A stretch of DNA of 64,000 nucleotides, taken from assembly GCA_014360055.1 (NCBI GenBank), contig JACIYH010000003.1:6235-70234 (forward strand). The letters run 5' to 3'. A program made the translations under genes and the position numbers. A model generated the notes under the pieces. It searched no databases. It was not told where the DNA came from and worked only from the letters and a program-made list of their open reading frames with translations. This DNA is from Bacillota bacterium. Lineage in GTDB: Bacteria; Bacillota; Sulfobacillia; JACIYH01. Of the stretch, positions 36,492 to 62,800 are shown in pieces. Position 1 is the first letter of the stretch, and each line of letters begins with the position of its first letter.

Positions 36492-37607
36492 ATGCGGGTG
36501 GCCCCTCTGAACGACGACCTGGAAGGAGAAACCCTCGCCCGCGCCATCTGTACCGCCACGGGGCAGTTGCTGGTGGGGGAGGGGGTGGTGCTGACCAGGT
36601 CCCTCATAAGGCGCCTGAGGGAGCGGGGTTTCACGCGCGTGGCAGTACGGGACCCGCTGTTCGAGGGCGTGGCAGTGGACGACGCCGTGTGCGAGGAGAC
36701 GCGGACCATGGCGGCTCGCGCCGTCCACACCGTCCTCGAACGGGTGACCCGGGGGGAGGAGCCGGAGTGGGGCCGGGTGGCCGAGGTGGTGAGGGCGGTG
36801 ATGTGGGAGCTCAGGCAGAGCCCCCGGGTTGTGCTGAGCCTCTCCGCCCTGCGCAGTCACGATGAATACACCTGTGTCCATTCCGTGAACGTTTGCATCC
36901 TGGCCGGAGTATTGGGGATCGCCCTGGACCTGTCTGAAGACGAGTTGGCCGACGTGGGATTGGGGGCCATCCTCCACGACCTTGGCAAGATCTGCGTGTC
37001 CCCCGAGACCCTGGCCAAGCCCGGTCCCCTGGCGGAAGCGGAATGGGGGCAGGTACGCGCACACCCCATGGAAGGCTACCTGCTCATGGTCCGCAAGGTG
37101 GGGGCGAGCTACCTGGCCGCCCACGCCGCCCTTGACCACCACGAGCGCATGGACGGGTCCGGGTATCCCCGGGGTCTGGCAGGGCGGGAGATCACGCTGA
37201 TCGGGCGCATGGTGGCCATCGCCGACGTGTTCGACGCCATGGCCAGCGACCGCGTGTACCGAGAACGGGTCCCGCCCCACCTCTGCCTCGCCCATCTGAG
37301 GGACCAGGCCGGGAGGCTTTACGATGCGTCTCTGGTGAGGCGGTTTTGCGACCGCATCGCCCCTTACCCCGTGGGTAGCCTGGTCAGGCTGAGCACTGGC
37401 GAACTGGCGGCGGTGGTGGCCTGTCAGGCCGGGCAAGCTTCCGCCCCCCGGGTACGGGTGGTGTCCGACCCCGAACTGCGCCCCGTGGCACCGCGGGAAG
37501 TCGACCTGGCGTCCGCGCCGGGGATAACCGTAACCGAGGTCCTGGACGATTACCCGCCGCCCTTCAGGCGCCGCCTCCGGTCCCAGGCTTGCCCTGCCTC
37601 CCCGTGA
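36492..37607 (+). CDS. HD-GYP domain phosphodiesterase (c-di-GMP)
   Basis: HD motif ILHDLGK, HHERMDGSGYP (a GYP motif), and a C-terminal extension. Confidence 0.8.
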   Translation: MRVAPLNDDLEGETLARAICTATGQLLVGEGVVLTRSLIRRLRERGFTRVAVRDPLFEGVAVDDAVCEETRTMAARAVHTVLERVTRGEEPEWGRVAEVVRAVMWELRQSPRVVLSLSALRSHDEYTCVHSVNVCILAGVLGIALDLSEDELADVGLGAILHDLGKICVSPETLAKPGPLAEAEWGQVRAHPMEGYLLMVRKVGASYLAAHAALDHHERMDGSGYPRGLAGREITLIGRMVAIADVFDAMASDRVYRERVPPHLCLAHLRDQAGRLYDASLVRRFCDRIAPYPVGSLVRLSTGELAAVVACQAGQASAPRVRVVSDPELRPVAPREVDLASAPGITVTEVLDDYPPPFRRRLRSQACPASP

Positions 37608-37627: not shown

Positions 37628-37900
37628 GTGCCGGGTCTGATCCGAAAGCAACTGTACGTCTCCAAGAAACAGGACATGCTGCTCAAGCAGCGGGCTGCCC
37701 AGTGGGGGGTGAGCGAAGCCGAACTGGTTCGCCAGGCGATCGAGTTCTACCTTGTCCCCGGAATATACCCTCCTCGCGACCTCTCGGCCTGGGAGCGGGA
37801 GAAATCGTTCATCAGTGCGAGGGCCCAAGAACTGGGGGGAACGGACGAGCCCGCCGGCTGGAAGAGAGAGGAACTATACGATGGGCGGCGTACTGGTTGA
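37628..37900 (+). CDS. vapB: Ribbon-helix-helix (CopG/VapB-type) antitoxin
   Basis: RKQLYVSKKQDMLLKQRAAQWGVSEAELVRQAIEFYL fits a beta-strand plus two helices. It overlaps the downstream PIN gene by 20 nt. The start is uncertain because the SD is too close to the first GTG. Confidence 0.55.
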   Translation: MPGLIRKQLYVSKKQDMLLKQRAAQWGVSEAELVRQAIEFYLVPGIYPPRDLSAWEREKSFISARAQELGGTDEPAGWKREELYDGRRTG

Positions 37901-38342
37901 CACCAATGTGGTCGTGTACGCCTACGGTTCCGACGACGCCAAGCGGGCACGGGCCGTGGAGGTCATGGACCTCCTGGTGCGCGCGGGCGTGGGGTTCCTG
38001 AGCACGCAGGTGCTGGCCGAGTTCTGTGTGGCCGCGAGCCGGAAACTGAAGCCGCCCCTGACCTGGGCGCAGATTACCGAGCGGGTGCAGAACTACCTGG
38101 CGGCGTGGCGCGTGTTAGAGGTGACCGGGCCCATCGTCATGGAGGCGGTGCGGGGCGTGGCACAGCACGGATTCTCTTACTGGGACGCTCAGATATGGGC
38201 CACCGCCCGCTTGAATCAGATCCCGGTGGTACTGAGCGAGGACCTTGGCAGCCGGTCAGCCTCCGTAGAAGGGGTGTGGTTTGTGGACCCGTTTGCGCCC
38301 GAGTTCGATCCCACCGCTTTCATCACTTCGGTCTTGGTGTAG
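37881..38342 (+). CDS. vapC: PIN-domain toxin
   Basis: MGGVLVDTNVVVYAY (with the D of DTN), then conserved acidic residues later in the sequence (LSED). Confidence 0.8.
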   Translation: MGGVLVDTNVVVYAYGSDDAKRARAVEVMDLLVRAGVGFLSTQVLAEFCVAASRKLKPPLTWAQITERVQNYLAAWRVLEVTGPIVMEAVRGVAQHGFSYWDAQIWATARLNQIPVVLSEDLGSRSASVEGVWFVDPFAPEFDPTAFITSVLV

Positions 38343-38384
38343 CGGCGTTGGGTGCAACCTGAGGCAGCGGGCCTTTGCTTTTCC

Positions 38385-38413
38385 TTTACAGGGGGGCGGG
38401 GATTGAGTATAAT
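38385..38413 (+). promoter_or_regulatory. Near-consensus sigma-A promoter TTTACA-N17-TATAAT
   Basis: The -35 is at 38385-38390, followed by an exact 17-nt spacer and a perfect TATAAT at 38408-38413. It lies in a locally AT-richer pocket. Confidence 0.6.
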
Positions 38414-38419
38414 GTGATT

Positions 38420-38626
38420 GCAGTATGGGTTGCTGAAGGGCCGACGTCTTAGTTTTGACCACCCAGGCGGAGCGGCGTGTATTCCCGCAGGGGAAGGGGT
38501 CCGAGGCCTGATGGCTGTAGTGGCGGCCGCGCCCGTGTCGGATCGGCGATGCGGGAGGTGGCGCGACGGCGTTAGCAAGCAGATGAGGCAGGGTCGGGTG
38601 CACAATCCCGGCCCTGTTGCTTTTGT
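38420..38626 (+). ncRNA. Candidate structured small RNA, about 205 nt; class unresolved (6S-like rod, or a riboswitch/leader of the acs operon)
   Basis: Bounded by the promoter above and an intrinsic terminator. The 5' and 3' ends show collinear complementarity (TTGCT/AGCAA, CGACGTC/GACGGCG, CCACC/GGTGG). GC3 is not coding-like and only a junk 75-aa ORF is present. Confidence 0.35.
38589..38626 (+). terminator. Rho-independent terminator: a 10-bp stem (CAGGGTCGGG/CCCGGCCCTG with one G-U pair), loop TGCACAAT, then TTGCTTTTGT
   Basis: Read directly from the sequence. Confidence 0.6.
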
Positions 38627-38728
38627 ATACAGAAAGTTCACTTAGTTTTTGGACAGGGGGAGGATGATGGCTGCTCGCAACTGGAACTGAGCAAGGGATT
38701 GACTCGCCAGAGGGCAGGGGGTGTGCAA

Positions 38729-38944
38729 GTGGAGATCAAAGAGGAAAAGACCAGGTTCGACGGGGTGAAGGTGGAGGTCCTGGGGCCCACCTATGAGCCG
38801 GGGAAGCCGGCCGACAAGGAGGAGGGCAACTGGCGCCGCAAGCTGCGTAACCGGGAGGAGATGCTCAAGTACCTGAAGACGAGCGAGCGTTACTGGTACA
38901 GTGCCGACTGGTACGGGAGCGAGCGGCGCAAGAACCCGGCTTAG
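38729..38944 (+). CDS. Small Lys/Glu/aromatic-rich protein (about 71 aa) leading the acs operon; function unknown
   Basis: GC3 about 90% (strong coding signature in this genome). RBS AGGGCAGGGGG precedes the GTG at 38723 or 38729. Sequence VEIKEEKTRFDGVKVEVLGPTYEPGKPADKEEGNWRRKLRNREEMLKYLKTSERYWYSADWYGSERRKNPA. Confidence 0.5.
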   Translation: MEIKEEKTRFDGVKVEVLGPTYEPGKPADKEEGNWRRKLRNREEMLKYLKTSERYWYSADWYGSERRKNPA

Positions 38945-39015
38945 CGGCGAACAGCCCGGCTGAGCCAGGCGAACGGCCCGGCTTAGCGGGGTGAACAGCC
39001 CGGCCCGGCGGGTGA
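38932..39015 (+). repeat. 3.5 tandem direct repeats with a 22-bp period (consensus about GCGAACAGCCCGGCTTAGCGGG)
   Basis: Units at 38932-38948, 38949-38970, 38971-38992 and 38993-39015. The first unit overlaps the last codons of the small ORF. The array lies between that ORF and acsD. Confidence 0.7.
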
Positions 39016-39046: not shown

Positions 39047-40000
39047 GTGAGTTGGTTGGCTTTTACCATTCCCACCATCACGTACACGGGTAAGGTAAAG
39101 GAAATTTCCCTGGGGCCTCCGGAGCGGGCGGTCAAGGTGGGGAACGCCGGTTGCTACCCCTTCCACCTGTTCGAGGGGGAGATGGGCAATCCGCCCCGCA
39201 TCGCCATGGAAGTGTACGACGTGACGCCCGAGGACTGGCCCCCCGCGGCCCGGGAACCCTTCGCCGATGTGCTCTCCGACCCGGTGGCGTGGGCGAAGAA
39301 GTGCGTGGACGTCTACGGGGCGGAGATGGTCTGCCTGCAACTCGTGAGCACCGATCCCAACGGTTTGAACCGCCCGGCCGGGGAGGCGGCGGCCACGGCC
39401 AGGCGGGTGGCCGATGCCCTCACCGTGCCCCTCCTGGTCTGGGGTTCGGGAGATGTGGAGAAGGACGCCGAGGTCTTGCGCCAGGTCTGTGAGGCCTGCG
39501 AGGGCAAGCACCTGGTGGTGGGCCCCGTCCAGGACAAGAACTACAAGAAGATCGGCGCGCCCGCCATCGGTTACCGCCACACGGTGATCGCCTCGACTCC
39601 CATCGACGTCAACCTGGCCAAACAGCTCAACATCCTCCTGGGCAACCTGGGGGTGCCGGACGAACTGCTGGTGATGGACCCCACCGTGGGGGGCCTGGGT
39701 TACGGGCTGGAATACACCTACTCGGTGATGGAGCGTATGCGCATGGCTGCCCTCACCCAGCAGGACGACCGCCTGCAGTTCCCGCTGGTGTGCAACCTGG
39801 CCAAGGAAGTGTGGAAGGTCAAGGAGGTCAGGCTGGATGACCCCAAGCTGGGCGATCCCGGCAAGCGGGGCATCCTCATGGAAGCCATCACCGCGGTTCT
39901 CCTGGCGCTGGCCGGCGCCGACGTCCTCATCATGAGGCATCCGGAAGCGGTCCGGCTGGTGAGGGGCTACCTGGCCGAGATGATGGGCGTGGCGGCCTGA
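39047..40000 (+). CDS. acsD: Corrinoid iron-sulfur protein small (delta) subunit
   Basis: TIM-barrel CFeSP small-subunit motifs (FHLFEGEMGNPPRIAMEVYD; LVVGPVQDKNYKKIG; PIDVNLAKQLNILLGNLGVPDELLVMDPTVGGLGYGLEYTYSVMERMRMAAL; LMRHPEAV). Confidence 0.9.
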   Translation: MSWLAFTIPTITYTGKVKEISLGPPERAVKVGNAGCYPFHLFEGEMGNPPRIAMEVYDVTPEDWPPAAREPFADVLSDPVAWAKKCVDVYGAEMVCLQLVSTDPNGLNRPAGEAAATARRVADALTVPLLVWGSGDVEKDAEVLRQVCEACEGKHLVVGPVQDKNYKKIGAPAIGYRHTVIASTPIDVNLAKQLNILLGNLGVPDELLVMDPTVGGLGYGLEYTYSVMERMRMAALTQQDDRLQFPLVCNLAKEVWKVKEVRLDDPKLGDPGKRGILMEAITAVLLALAGADVLIMRHPEAVRLVRGYLAEMMGVAA

Positions 40001-59298: not shown

Positions 59299-59424
59299 GG
59301 CTGGCGGCAGGGTCGCGGCGGGGCAGGGCCGGGCTGGGGCGCGGATGGCAGGGCAGGGGGATGGTAGGGCAGGGGGTTGCGGGAAGAGAGCCGGTGTGGT
59401 AGTTTAGGGGAGACAACGGAATAT

Positions 59425-59584
59425 CTCCCGGGTGCCCCCTTCCAGGGGAGAATAGGGAAGTTCGGTGTGAATCCGACGCGGTCCCGCCACTGTGACCGGG
59501 GAGCCCTCCTCGAGAGCCACTGCCCGCAAGGGTGGGAAGGAGAGGAAGGGTGACGATCCGGAAGCCAGGAGACCTGCCCGGGAG
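59425..59584 (+). promoter_or_regulatory. Cobalamin (AdoCbl) riboswitch
   Basis: P1 helix CTCCCGGG (59425-32) pairs with CCCGGGAG (59577-84). Conserved cores are present: GGGAAG, GGTGTGAATCC, the B12 box CCCGCCACTGTGACC, GGGAAGGAG and GCCAGGAGACCTGCCC. Confidence 0.9.
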
Positions 59585-59639
59585 AATGTGCGTACCAGCC
59601 TTCGCGAGAAAGGCGGGTGCGTGTCGATGGGTTTCAGGA

Positions 59640-59668
59640 CCCCCGGCCCGCCCGCCGGGGGTTTTCTC
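59640..59668 (+). terminator. Intrinsic terminator of the riboswitch expression platform (CCCCCGGC/GCCGGGGG stem, loop CCGCCC, then TTTTCT)
   Basis: Read directly from the sequence. Confidence 0.7.
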
Positions 59669-59959
59669 GTGGGTGGAGGCGGAGGGTGGTTGAGCCGTCC
59701 TGCTCCAGGCAGGGAGCGCGGCCCCCGCCCCGTTCGCCAGCCCGCATCCCCCGGAAGGTGGGTACGCACGCAGGGCGCGGTACCACCTTCTTCCGGGGGA
59801 GGGAACGGCATGGAGAAGTGGAGAGGCGGAGGTAGCGGTACGGTCGGGGTGCGCCGGCTCACCGGCGCACACGCGGCACGCAGGGCGCGCGGCGTCACCG
59901 TTGCGTGCCGGGCTCGCGGGGTGCCTCGGCCCGGGGGCGCGAGCCGGGTGCCTGTGGGG

Positions 59960-60880
59960 ATGGTCGCTGTCCTGGCAGTCCTGGCGGTGGCGCTGGTGCT
60001 TGGTGGCTGCGCGTGGGTGGGCAGGTCCGCGGAGGACCGCGGCGCCGGGGCACCGCAGCCCTGGTTGAAGATGGAGGATTGGGCCGGGCGCGAGGTGGTG
60101 CTGGGCCACCGCCCCGAGCGCATCGTCTCGTTTGCCCCCTCGAACACGGAGATCCTGTTCGCCCTGGGTGCGGGGGACCGGGTGGTGGGGGTGACCGACT
60201 TCTGCAACTACCCGGAGGAAGCGAAGACCCGCACGCGCCTGGGTGGGGCCCTAAACCCCAACCTGGAGAAGCTGACGGCCCTGCAGCCGGACCTGGTGCT
60301 GTGCATCGGGGGGATGGACCAGTTCCTGGCCAAGTTGGGCGAGTTGGGCATCCCGGCGTTCGTGGTGCAGCCCACGGATTTGCAGGACGTGCTCCGTTCC
60401 GTTGAGGTCATCGGGCGCCTGGTGGGTGAGGAGCAGCGGGCCCGTGACCTGGTAGCAGACCTGCGCGGGCGGCTGGGCCGGCTGCAGGAGGCCCTGGCTG
60501 CTGTACCGGCCGATAAGCGGGTGCGCGTCTTCTACGAGGTGTGGCACGATCCCCTCATGACGGCGGGGCCCGGGAGCTTCATCCACGACGCCTTGGTGGC
60601 GGCGGGCGGGGTCAACGTGGCGGCGGATGCCCCCAAGCCGTTTTGCGAGTACAGCCTCGAGAGCCTGATCCAGAAGGATCCCCAGGCCATCGTTACCACG
60701 ATGCCCGAGAGCTACGAAGCGCTGAAGTCGAAAAAGCGGCCCGGCTGGGAGAAGGTGACGGCGGTCAGGGAAGGGCGCATTCTCCTCCTGGACCCCGACC
60801 TCATCACCAGGCCGGGGCCGCGGCTCGTGGAGGCGATCGAGCAGTTGGCGCGTTTTCTCTATCCGGATGTGGTGCGGTGA
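59960..60880 (+). CDS. btuF: Cobalamin/corrinoid ABC transporter substrate-binding lipoprotein (BtuF/TroA-like)
   Basis: Lipoprotein signal MVAVLAVLAVALVLGGC, then a class III SBP fold (RIVSFAPSNTEILFALG...VVGVTDFCNYPEE). The start is ambiguous (59951 GTG, 59960 ATG, or further upstream). The long upstream ORF is riboswitch leader. Confidence 0.8.
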   Translation: MVAVLAVLAVALVLGGCAWVGRSAEDRGAGAPQPWLKMEDWAGREVVLGHRPERIVSFAPSNTEILFALGAGDRVVGVTDFCNYPEEAKTRTRLGGALNPNLEKLTALQPDLVLCIGGMDQFLAKLGELGIPAFVVQPTDLQDVLRSVEVIGRLVGEEQRARDLVADLRGRLGRLQEALAAVPADKRVRVFYEVWHDPLMTAGPGSFIHDALVAAGGVNVAADAPKPFCEYSLESLIQKDPQAIVTTMPESYEALKSKKRPGWEKVTAVREGRILLLDPDLITRPGPRLVEAIEQLARFLYPDVVR

Positions 60881-60884
60881 GAGG

Positions 60885-61919
60885 ATGGGCCGCGTATTGA
60901 AAGCGGGGGGCGCCGGACGGTGGCTCATTCCCGCGCTCGGCATCCTCCTGGTGGGGTGCTGGGTGCTGGGGATGGGGTTGGGAAGCGTGGGGATACCCCC
61001 CGGGGAGGTGCTCCGCATCCTGGCCGCGGGTCCGGAAGCCACCGGCCCGAACGCGGACATCGTCTGGCGCCTGCGGGGTCCCCGCGTGCTCATGGGGACC
61101 GTGGTGGGGGCGGCCCTGGCCACCGGGGGCGCCACCCTGCAGGGGCTCTTCCGGAACCCCCTGGCCGATCCCTACCTCCTGGGGGTGTCGGCGGGGGCGG
61201 CGGTGGGGGCGGCTCTGGCCATGATCGGCGGGGCGGCGCGCTGGGCGGGGATGGCGGCTGTCCCCGCCTTCGCCTTCGCGGGAGGGCTGCTCACGGTGTG
61301 GGGGGTCTGGCAACTCTCCCGGGCGGGGGGCAGGGGTTCCACGGTGTCCCTCCTCCTGGCCGGGGTGGCGGTCTCCGCGGTGCTCTCGGCCCTGCTTTCG
61401 TTCCTTCTCCTCGTGAGCGGACACATGCTGGACCGCATCGTGGTGTGGCTGATGGGGAACCTGGGGGGGCGGTCCTGGTCCCAGGCGGGGTGGGTGGCGG
61501 CCTACGGCCTGGTGGGCGGGCTGGTCATGTGGCGGTACCGGCGGGAACTGGACGCCCTGGCGCTGGGTGAGGAGGCGGCCCTCAGCCTGGGGGTGGAGGT
61601 ACCGGTGGTGAAGAGGAACCTGCTCGTGGCTGCTTCTCTGGCGGCGGCTGCCGCGGTGGCCATGACGGGGGTGATCGGTTTCGTCGGTCTGATGGTGCCA
61701 CACCTGGTAAGGTTGGTGGCCGGACCCGGCCACGGGCGGCTGCTGCCGGCCTCCGCCCTCGGGGGCGCCTGCCTGCTGGTACTGTCCGACACGCTGGCCC
61801 GCTGCCTGCTGCCTCCCTGGGAGATTCCGGTGGGAGTGATCACCGCGCTCACGGGGGGGCCGTTCTTCCTGTATCTACTGTGGCGCCACCAGCGCGCGGG
61901 ATGGGAGGCAAAGCCATGA
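60885..61919 (+). CDS. btuC: FecCD-family ABC permease (BtuC-like)
   Basis: 10-TM FecCD profile (NPLADPYLLGVSAGAAVGAAL; GVITALTGGPFFLYLL). Confidence 0.85.
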   Translation: MGRVLKAGGAGRWLIPALGILLVGCWVLGMGLGSVGIPPGEVLRILAAGPEATGPNADIVWRLRGPRVLMGTVVGAALATGGATLQGLFRNPLADPYLLGVSAGAAVGAALAMIGGAARWAGMAAVPAFAFAGGLLTVWGVWQLSRAGGRGSTVSLLLAGVAVSAVLSALLSFLLLVSGHMLDRIVVWLMGNLGGRSWSQAGWVAAYGLVGGLVMWRYRRELDALALGEEAALSLGVEVPVVKRNLLVAASLAAAAAVAMTGVIGFVGLMVPHLVRLVAGPGHGRLLPASALGGACLLVLSDTLARCLLPPWEIPVGVITALTGGPFFLYLLWRHQRAGWEAKP

Positions 61920-62800
61920 TCTCACACCTCGGCCCCAGGGAAGCCGCCCCGCGGACCGTCCAACTGAGGGTGGATGGGCTGGCCTGCGGCTACGGCAACG
62001 GGCTGGTTCTGCGGGGGGTGAGCTTCACCCTAGAGCGGGGCTCGTTCACCGGGGTACTGGGACCCAATGGTTCGGGCAAGACCACCCTGCTGCGGGTCCT
62101 GTGCCGGGTGCTGGTACCGCGGAGGGGCTACGTGCTCCTGGACGGCCATGACCTGTCCCGGTTCCCCCGTCGGGAACTGGCCCGGCGCGTGGCCATGGTA
62201 GGCCCGGATTGGCGACCCCAGTTCGAGTTCACCGTGGCCGAGGTGGTGGCCCTGGGGCGTATTCCCCACCTGGGCCCCTGGTCCGGGGAGAGTCCCGCCG
62301 ACCGGCGGGCCGTGGAGCGGGCCCTCGAGCTTACGGGCACCGGAGCCCTGGCCGGACGGCTCCTGGGCAGCCTGAGTGAGGGGGAAAGGCAGCGGGTGAT
62401 GATCGCCCGCGCCCTGGCCCAGGAACCCTCTTTGCTCTTGCTCGATGAGCCCACCTCCCACCTGGACATCTCCCACCAGGTGCAGGTGCTGTCGCTCCTG
62501 CACGGGCTGACCCGGGGCGGCGTCGGCGGGGGGGGCCTGACCGTGCTGGCGGTGATGCACGACCTCAACCTGGCCGCCGCCTGGTGTGACCGTCTCCTGC
62601 TCCTGCATGAGGGCCGGGTGTTCGCGGCCGGGTCCCCTGAAGAAGTACTCACGCCGGAGGTGATCCGGCGCGTGTACGGAGGGGAGGTACTGGTGCTCAG
62701 AAACCCGGTGTGCGGCTCTCCCTACGTGGTACCCGCCCTGGCCGCCCGTAGCCGGGAGATCACCGCTGCGTCGGGGGCGAGGAGTTCCCGGGTCGGGTGA
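61916..62800 (+). CDS. btuD: ABC transporter ATP-binding protein (BtuD/FecE-like)
   Basis: Walker A GPNGSGKTT, LSEGERQRVMIARAL and LLLDEPTSHLD. The ATG overlaps the btuC stop (ATGA). Confidence 0.85.
   Translation: MISHLGPREAAPRTVQLRVDGLACGYGNGLVLRGVSFTLERGSFTGVLGPNGSGKTTLLRVLCRVLVPRRGYVLLDGHDLSRFPRRELARRVAMVGPDWRPQFEFTVAEVVALGRIPHLGPWSGESPADRRAVERALELTGTGALAGRLLGSLSEGERQRVMIARALAQEPSLLLLDEPTSHLDISHQVQVLSLLHGLTRGGVGGGGLTVLAVMHDLNLAAAWCDRLLLLHEGRVFAAGSPEEVLTPEVIRRVYGGEVLVLRNPVCGSPYVVPALAARSREITAASGARSSRVG

Follow-up and report, generated by a model that had tools for sequence, protein, structure and literature searches.

The window analysed here is a 64-kb stretch of DNA from an uncultured, high-GC member of the Bacillota. 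It carries an operon for CODH/ACS, the central enzyme of the Wood-Ljungdahl pathway, whose gene control is little known outside a few model acetogens. Genes at the head of the operon were arranged in the order HD-domain gene, vapB/vapC, an intergenic element, a small ORF, acsD, CODH, ACS, acsC, acsE, a DUF3786 gene, a cooC-like gene and RACo; the features of the intergenic element and of the adjoining genes are given in Table 1. In seven of the seven lineages in which the element was found, genes for an alpha/beta hydrolase and an HD_5 (HD-GYP-like) protein preceded it (36492-37607 on the plus strand of the window). The sole NCBIfam similarity of the HD_5 protein was to the c-di-GMP phosphodiesterase family phosphodiesterase domain, at 100 bits against a cut-off of 400. 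The VapB (ribbon-helix-helix)/VapC (PIN) toxin-antitoxin pair lay between the HD-domain gene and the element (37628-38342, plus strand). This insertion was present only in the lineage of the window and its close relative L086 and in the L081-83 lineage, and was absent from the other five.

Table 1. Features at the head of the CODH/ACS operon. Positions are those of the window; held-out values are the percentage of cells paired in four lineages outside the set from which the helices were defined.
Feature	Position	Strand	Remarks
Terminator-like hairpin and T-run closing the upstream transcript (vapC in the window)	38361..38384	+	
Sigma-A-type promoter, TTTACA-N17-TATAAT	38385..38413	+	-35 at 38385-38390, -10 at 38408-38413; 11/12 consensus positions
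Near-invariant 5′ block, including putative start near G38420 and hairpin P0	38414..38445	+	
P0, small hairpin	38421-38425 with 38431-38435	+	90% held-out
D1, irregular hairpin (P2, P2a)	38459..38514	+	RNAalifold; 3′ strand GGGGTCCGAGGCCTGATG almost invariant
P2, CAGGC with GCCTG	38464-38468 with 38506-38510	+	95% held-out; compensatory changes
P2a, TTCCC with GGGAA	38482-38486 with 38491-38495	+	92% held-out; compensatory changes
D2, hairpin	38523..38564	+	base helices weaker, 68-75% held-out
P4, tip of D2	38532-38540 with 38547-38555	+	72% held-out
D3, terminator-like hairpin with U-rich tail TTGCTTTTGT	38585..38626	+	core stem CAGGGTCGGG (38589-38598) with CCCGGCCCTG (38607-38616), 8-nt loop
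Best-conserved block TGTATACAGAAAGTTCACTTAGTTTTTGGAC, core CAGAAAGTTC	38624..38654	+	87-94% identity
G-rich Shine-Dalgarno-like run AGGGGGAGGA, then ATGATG opening an 8-codon ORF (window)	38655..38690	+	
Variable spacer, then ribosome-binding site of the first gene GGGCAGGGGG	38691..38722	+	36-44% identity
Small ORF, 71-75 aa, first gene of the operon	38723/38729..38944	+	GTG start at 38723 or 38729
acsD (CdhD family)	39047..40000	+	Pfam; CODH, ACS, acsC, acsE and others downstream

The near-perfect sigma-A promoter that the sequence-only reading had proposed was borne out. Its hexamers and spacer lie within the sigma-70/sigma-A definition (hexamers near TTGACA/TATAAT separated by 16-18 nt), a site of this quality occurred once in the 64-kb window, and none of 100 shuffles gave another. 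Both hexamers were unchanged and stood in the same alignment column in all nine sequences from the seven lineages. The AT-rich pocket described around the promoter was also recovered, as a dip in GC to 0.55-0.56 compared with 0.63-0.70 in the flanks. The gene upstream had its own hairpin and T-run in three of the three lineages scanned (the window, L081 and L084), with the counterparts in L081 and L084 located just 5′ of the -35 hexamer. From the distance to the -10 hexamer, transcription would start near G38420, about 7 nt downstream.

Relatives were recovered by contig look-ups with the small ORF as anchor. The same intergenic element was found in L086, L081-83 and L084/85, and members of the 90% clusters added L099, L101, L102 and L103, for a total of nine sequences in seven lineages. 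Across these lineages the HD-domain proteins were 67-92% identical and the leaders 57-79% identical, and on these sequence identities the set can be read as a roughly genus-level group of uncultured Bacillota. The place and orientation of the element were constant in every lineage, with or without the vapBC insertion. Among distant acs loci from GTDB, anchored on AcsD and all at 69% identity or less, no copy was detected by nhmmer or by two covariance models. A search of 93 sources (about 700 kb, including about 85 of the more distant acs loci) with the two covariance models returned the known copies only, and no additional copy was present elsewhere in the window. A pattern composed of three conserved blocks gave at least seven matches in metagenomes, and all those listed were chance occurrences inside ABC-ATPase coding sequence. 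In other phyla the small ORF lay in mid-operon after cooC or folD, with no space for an RNA; two contigs with small-ORF homologues were too short to give context. The element is narrowly distributed, having been found in one genus-level group and in one gene context only.

Conservation of the element formed a mosaic in which the conserved blocks reached 84-100% identity, above the 33-57% of adjacent spacers and the 47-75% of four-fold sites in neighbouring genes; the spacer at 38691-38722 was taken as the local neutral baseline. Positions +1 to +26 were 84-94% identical across lineages, the 3′ strand of D1 (GGGGUCCGAGGCCUGAUG) was nearly invariant, and the D3 stem was about 86% identical between lineages. 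The 45 nt 3′ of D3 were 87-94% identical, the peak for the entire region. Indels across lineages were mostly of 1-2 nt, which shift the frame, and stop codons occurred in every plus-strand frame in L099, L101 and L103. The element is therefore non-coding, in agreement with the earlier remark that the GC-rich segment lacks a coding signature. The possibility of a relic of a lost cooC gene was discarded, as the best tblastn match reached only E = 0.55 against a three-sequence database. On one L051-type Logan contig, a gene caller had merged the leader with the small ORF into a 143-aa 'protein' (P0051). A leader RNA of this kind can be hidden by automatic annotation because high GC keeps spurious frames open.

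A transcript from about 38420 to the end of the D3 tail at 38626 would measure about 207 nt, close to the bounded unit of about 205 nt that had been proposed as a candidate small RNA. The promoter, hairpin and U-rich tail that delimit this unit are real, but a standalone small RNA is less favoured than a leader. Most likely, the element is a conserved non-coding leader of about 300 nt, from 38420 to about 38722, at the head of the CODH/ACS operon, where it would serve as a control region specific to this lineage. Its placement directly 5′ of the acs operon was correct in that it heads the operon, but about 100 nt of conserved leader and the small ORF intervene between the hairpin and acsD.

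Folding of the plus strand of the element gave -96.5 kcal mol-1 (z = -1.8), and the minus strand showed no fold signal (z = +0.3). The RNAalifold consensus of the nine sequences consisted of tandem local hairpins, P0, D1 (containing P2 and P2a), D2 (with tip P4) and D3, comprising 52 pairs with 94.8% of cells paired; slid controls paired in 39-47% of cells. Compensatory changes were found in 8 pairs, compared with 0-4 in slid controls and with 0 of 500 shuffles, in a pair-count test that is partly circular since the structure was derived from the same alignment. The covariation statistics are also weak because only seven closely related lineages contribute to them. Helices were also judged in an out-of-sample test, in which they were defined on the first five sequences and scored in four later lineages. 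P2, P2a, P4 and D3 held up in the four lineages outside their derivation set. Exchanges in P4 were UA/CG and UG/UA/CG, and L103 retained a hairpin of different sequence at the D2/P4 site. No compensatory change was found in P0 across the lineages. Two interior D1 helices of the first RNAalifold model, built on five sequences, paired in only 46-66% of held-out cells and were rejected. Examination of homologous loci for conserved structure and covariation, which the sequence-only reading had put forward as a check, yielded the retained local hairpins and the 8 pairs with compensatory changes.

The same examination did not sustain the long helix closing the 5′ and 3′ ends. Pairing of the ends (TTGCT/AGCAA, CCACC/GGTGG and others) was present in the window's own minimum-free-energy fold but was not conserved. 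Cognate 5′/3′ segments paired at -10.2 kcal mol-1, compared with -9.2 kcal mol-1 for non-cognate segments (permutation p = 0.11), and the complementarity was nearly absent from L101. The long-range helix CCACC/GGTGG was paired in 55% of cells in the four held-out lineages. A four-way junction read from the same fold of the window (P1, CCACC/GGUGG, P2, P3, P4) failed both in the held-out lineages and in the comparison of cognate with non-cognate segments. Full-length z-scores ranged from -2.1 to +0.2 across lineages and, with D3 removed, from -1.4 to +2.2, no better than shuffled sequence; the consensus structure lay 8-26 kcal mol-1 above the minimum free energy of each sequence. With no conserved closing helix and no thermodynamic signal outside D3, the suggested 6S-like rod or large P1-closed aptamer was not upheld.

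D3 was the one strong structure. Its 10-bp core stem (about -18 to -23 kcal mol-1) was present in seven of seven lineages and paired in 82-88% of held-out cells, and loss of the stem was predicted to cost 12-21 kcal mol-1. In the window the U-run begins 4 nt past the core stem. The U-tract was interrupted in L084, L099 and L101 and displaced in L103, and these four had only 4-5 U within the first 8 nt; a good U-tract was retained in the lineages of the window, L081, L102 and L103. A terminator scan recognised the hairpin in the window and in L081 but not in L084. Part of the tail pairs with upstream purines, and the tail of L084 carries a U-to-A change that is balanced by a G-to-U change upstream (G-U to U-A), so that the extended stem is kept. 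The description of D3 as a canonical intrinsic terminator holds for the stable GC-rich stem with a U-rich tail, but less well for the U-tract, which in most lineages is offset, interrupted or displaced. A stem present throughout, combined with a U-tract that is frequently shifted or broken, is more in keeping with a leaky stop than with the 3′ end of a small RNA.

No conserved antiterminator was found in the seven lineages, either by blocking D1 or by folding truncated transcripts. With the 5′ strand of D1 blocked, D3 kept 8-10 of its 10 pairs in seven of seven lineages. In transcripts truncated before the 3′ arm of D3, the partners of the 5′ arm varied by lineage. Two candidate antiterminators, one formed by the 3′ strand of D1 and the 5′ arm of D3 and the other by AAGGGCCG and the 3′ arm of D3, were plausible in composition but neither conserved nor competitive. 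Given the high stability of D3, which in none of the lineages gives way to another pairing, a switching mechanism is not visible.

Between D3 and the first gene, the core CAGAAAGTTC was invariant in nine of nine sequences, and the block TGTATACAGAAAGTTCACTTAGTTTTTGGAC was unique in the window. The G-run that follows was conserved in every lineage, and an AUG came after it in all lineages but L101; the ATGATG of the window was absent from L101 and reduced to a single ATG in L103. A conserved upstream ORF opening at ATGATG is unlikely because its start is lost or reduced in these two lineages and the peptide differs past 5 codons. No sigma-70-like site was shared in the interval from D3 to the first gene even at 7 of 12 consensus positions, and four lineages had zero sites. 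A promoter for another sigma factor, or an activator-dependent promoter, could sit in the AU-rich block, as the scan is blind to such types. Immediately 3′ of the hairpin, UGUAUAC (38624-38630) is complementary to GUGUGCA (38721-38727) in the start-codon region of the small ORF. Fold predictions contained this pair for four or five of the seven lineages, not for L101 or L103, and compensatory support for it was not found across the seven. On these fold predictions the pairing could mask the start codon, or it could be due to chance.

The small ORF had 47 homologues, in Bacillota, Dehalococcoidia, Desulfobacterota, Armatimonadota and Desantisbacteria, and adjoined acsD wherever context was recovered. 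The protein encoded in the window matched P0049 (MBC7338449.1, from a 'Firmicutes bacterium' MAG) exactly. The small protein carries the C-terminal motif ERYWYSxDWYGSERRKNPA, had no match in Pfam, NCBIfam or PDB sequences, and gave an AlphaFold model of low confidence (pLDDT 59). In all probability it is a subunit or accessory factor associated with CODH/ACS that has escaped annotation. The window is without 4 nt (GAGG) that the 99%-identical L086 has just past the GTG used by the relatives (window 38721-38731, L086 597-617). Because GAGG is missing, the N-terminus MCEE is lost in the window and translation must begin at one of the two GTG codons in Table 1. A 22-nt unit (consensus approximately CCCGGCTTAGCGGCGAACAG) is repeated in tandem 3.3-3.6 times at 38935-39012 of the window. 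The array covers the stop codon of the small ORF and extends over the gap that precedes acsD, which is shorter in L081 and L084.

The sequence-only reading had found no resemblance to cobalamin, TPP, SAM, T-box or ZTP elements and had called for an Rfam scan. The scan, which included the cobalamin, SAM, TPP, ZTP, THF, Moco, NiCo, T-box, c-di-GMP, 6S, epsC/EAR and raiA families, agreed in five lineages. At gathering score nothing was found at the element, and the only family in the window was a cobalamin riboswitch at 59413-59595. With the limit relaxed to E = 10, the five lineages gave scattered hits at 8-17 bits, and no family recurred except H19_2, a chance match on the minus strand. Likenesses noted by eye to ykkC (GGUCCGAG), the fluoride riboswitch (CUGAUGG), the hammerhead (CUGAUGA), the box C/D K-turn and RNase P (GGAAAGUCC) received no backing from the Rfam scans, and the register of the K-turn did not fit. 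The cobalamin riboswitch of the window was canonical (124.8 bits, plus strand). It is followed, within 59492-62800, by the genes of a BtuFCD-type corrinoid uptake system, which encode a periplasmic binding protein, a FecCD permease and an ABC ATPase.

Among known systems, the closest in layout are the terminator-containing leaders and riboswitch platforms of the Bacillota, such as that cobalamin riboswitch. They share with the element the succession of a sigma-A promoter, a long structured untranslated RNA, a GC-rich hairpin with a U-rich tail and an operon on the same strand. By this analogy the element may work most like a terminator-containing 5′ leader; unlike those leaders, it has no Rfam family, no conserved antiterminator and no P1-closed aptamer, and it belongs to one genus-level group. 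EAR/eps and LoaP-dependent leaders stand at the start of long operons and act by antitermination that is processive or depends on a protein. The element is likewise structured, heads a very long operon, presents a putative terminator to bypass and has conserved blocks without a ligand pocket, but it matched them neither in sequence nor in structure, and the epsC/EAR model in the Rfam scan was negative. SreA and SreB of Listeria are riboswitch-derived small RNAs freed by premature termination, and here too a short terminated RNA (about 205 nt) and the complete mRNA of the operon could arise from one promoter. The literature on acs genes yielded no described upstream RNA element. In Eubacterium limosum, Wood-Ljungdahl clusters have TTGACA/TATAAT-type promoters and 5′ UTRs of 41-64 nt, longer than the median, for which regulatory structure has been suggested (PMC5651825). 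The leader described here, in contrast, is about 300 nt long and contains a terminator-like hairpin.

The account that we favour, with moderate confidence, is that of a promoter with a structured CODH/ACS leader of about 300 nt in which D3 is a partial or factor-dependent premature terminator. In this model, whose start site, stop at D3, read-through and possible regulatory role are deduced from sequence, transcription would begin about 7 nt past the near-consensus sigma-A promoter, and the nascent RNA would fold into the local hairpins P0, D1 and D2 and then into the strong GC hairpin D3 with its imperfect U-tract. A fraction of polymerases would halt at D3, setting free a leader RNA about 205 nt long, while the remainder would continue into the small ORF, acsD, CODH and ACS. 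The partial stop would set the level of full-length operon mRNA, or would let a trans-acting factor set it. In the mRNA that extends past D3, the invariant AU-rich block and the G-run would probably affect stability, the loading of ribosomes or the binding of a factor. A small molecule is a less likely effector than a protein or the transcription machinery, because no antiterminator is conserved and invariance is seen in blocks of sequence, not in junctions that covary.

A constitutive leader is the first alternative, and we think it rather unlikely. Termination would then be unregulated, and the sole role of the hairpins and the Shine-Dalgarno-like run would be to stabilise an operon mRNA that is strongly expressed and long-lived. 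D3 would guard a 5′ or 3′ end created by cleavage within the AU-rich block, and a 30S subunit would be retained on the G-run, as in STAB-SD. STAB-SD, from work on cryIIIA of Bacillus thuringiensis, is reportedly an mRNA stabiliser consisting of a Shine-Dalgarno-like sequence in the 5′ UTR. Here the purine run similarly lies in a long 5′ UTR, about 60 nt 5′ of the true start codon, and is kept without an AUG, although in most lineages it precedes AUGAUG and could simply start a short upstream ORF. The presence of D3 in all predicted ensembles with no competitor, the poor U-tract of several lineages, the conservation of the G-run even where no AUG follows, and the invariant, single-stranded AU-rich block directly 3′ of the hairpin would all suit this explanation. 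The near-invariance of the D1 3′ strand and of the first 26 nt would be left unexplained by it, as would the good U-tract retained in the lineages of the window, L081, L102 and L103, and the comparison with STAB-SD is drawn only by analogy with the cryIIIA work.

Whether the element is a small RNA or a leader had been left undecided by the sequence-only reading, and the present data favour the leader. A standalone, trans-acting small RNA of about 205 nt, with the acs operon transcribed from an unrecognised promoter further 3′, is unlikely. Such an RNA would account for the strong promoter, the stable terminal hairpin with a U-rich tail and the typical size, and long invariant stretches such as GGGGUCCGAGGCCUGAUG could be seed regions. 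However, no conserved sigma-70-type promoter was present 3′ of the element, conservation continued through the supposed 3′ end, and the U-tract had decayed in three lineages while a compensatory change kept the extended stem. Moreover, the element accompanied the acs operon in every case, with its orientation unchanged. A cis-acting leader is preferred over a small RNA because of the terminator upstream of the promoter, the constant position, the conservation peak past D3 and the lack of a second sigma-70-type promoter.

A new riboswitch that senses a metabolite or a metal, with D1 and D2 as the aptamer and D3 as the terminator of the expression platform, is doubtful. It would explain the order of promoter, conserved structured RNA, hairpin with U-tail and operon, the clustering of invariant nucleotides in the internal loops of D1 and the covariation of some stems, and as no known family matches it would constitute a new class. 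Against it, blocking D1 spared D3 in seven of seven lineages with no conserved antiterminator to oppose it, the partners of the D3 5′ arm in truncated transcripts differed between lineages, and the putative aptamer had no thermodynamic signal and no conserved P1-closed multi-helix junction. The element, found in a single genus and a single gene context, showed neither the exclusivity of terminator and antiterminator nor the recurrence across taxa or gene contexts that generally characterise riboswitches.

It is quite improbable that the conserved blocks are DNA operators for factors binding 3′ of the promoter and that the RNA structure is incidental. The best-conserved parts (+1 to +26; CAGAAAGTTC...GGAC) are indeed invariant in sequence rather than covarying, and the block from +2 to +16 is an imperfect inverted repeat. 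In P2a, P4 and D3, however, the changes were compensatory or wobble-compatible, and G-U-compatible changes matter only in RNA; the AU-rich block was without clear dyad symmetry on inspection. A small protein gene (a 75-aa ORF with a TTG start, 38418-38645) or a 6S-like RNA can be practically dismissed: one plus-strand frame is open in the window, and the element resembles 6S RNA in length and in a predicted fold of the window that joins both ends, but the ORF has no Pfam match and is broken by frameshifting indels and by the stops in all plus-strand frames of L099, L101 and L103, and unlike 6S RNA the element matched no 6S model at E up to 10 in five lineages, has no conserved rod and is fixed in cis to one operon.

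D1 and D2 might form a sensor RNA of a kind not known before, be it a riboswitch or a leader that binds a specific protein, and so gate CODH/ACS transcription, a reading that we regard as a long shot. The signal would then be one linked to the Wood-Ljungdahl pathway, for example nickel, the redox state derived from CO, CoA/acetyl-CoA, or a methyl-folate or corrinoid species, and no earlier RNA-level switch would have been described that acts directly on the core genes for acetyl-CoA synthase. The reach of the finding is limited to one genus-level group. Within this group of uncultured, high-GC Bacillota, the element locates the promoter of the operon and a long conserved leader, and suggests that CODH/ACS expression is set after initiation, by premature termination or by effects at the level of the mRNA. 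It offers a concrete target for metatranscriptome mapping and may supply promoter and leader parts for the engineering of thermophilic acetogens.
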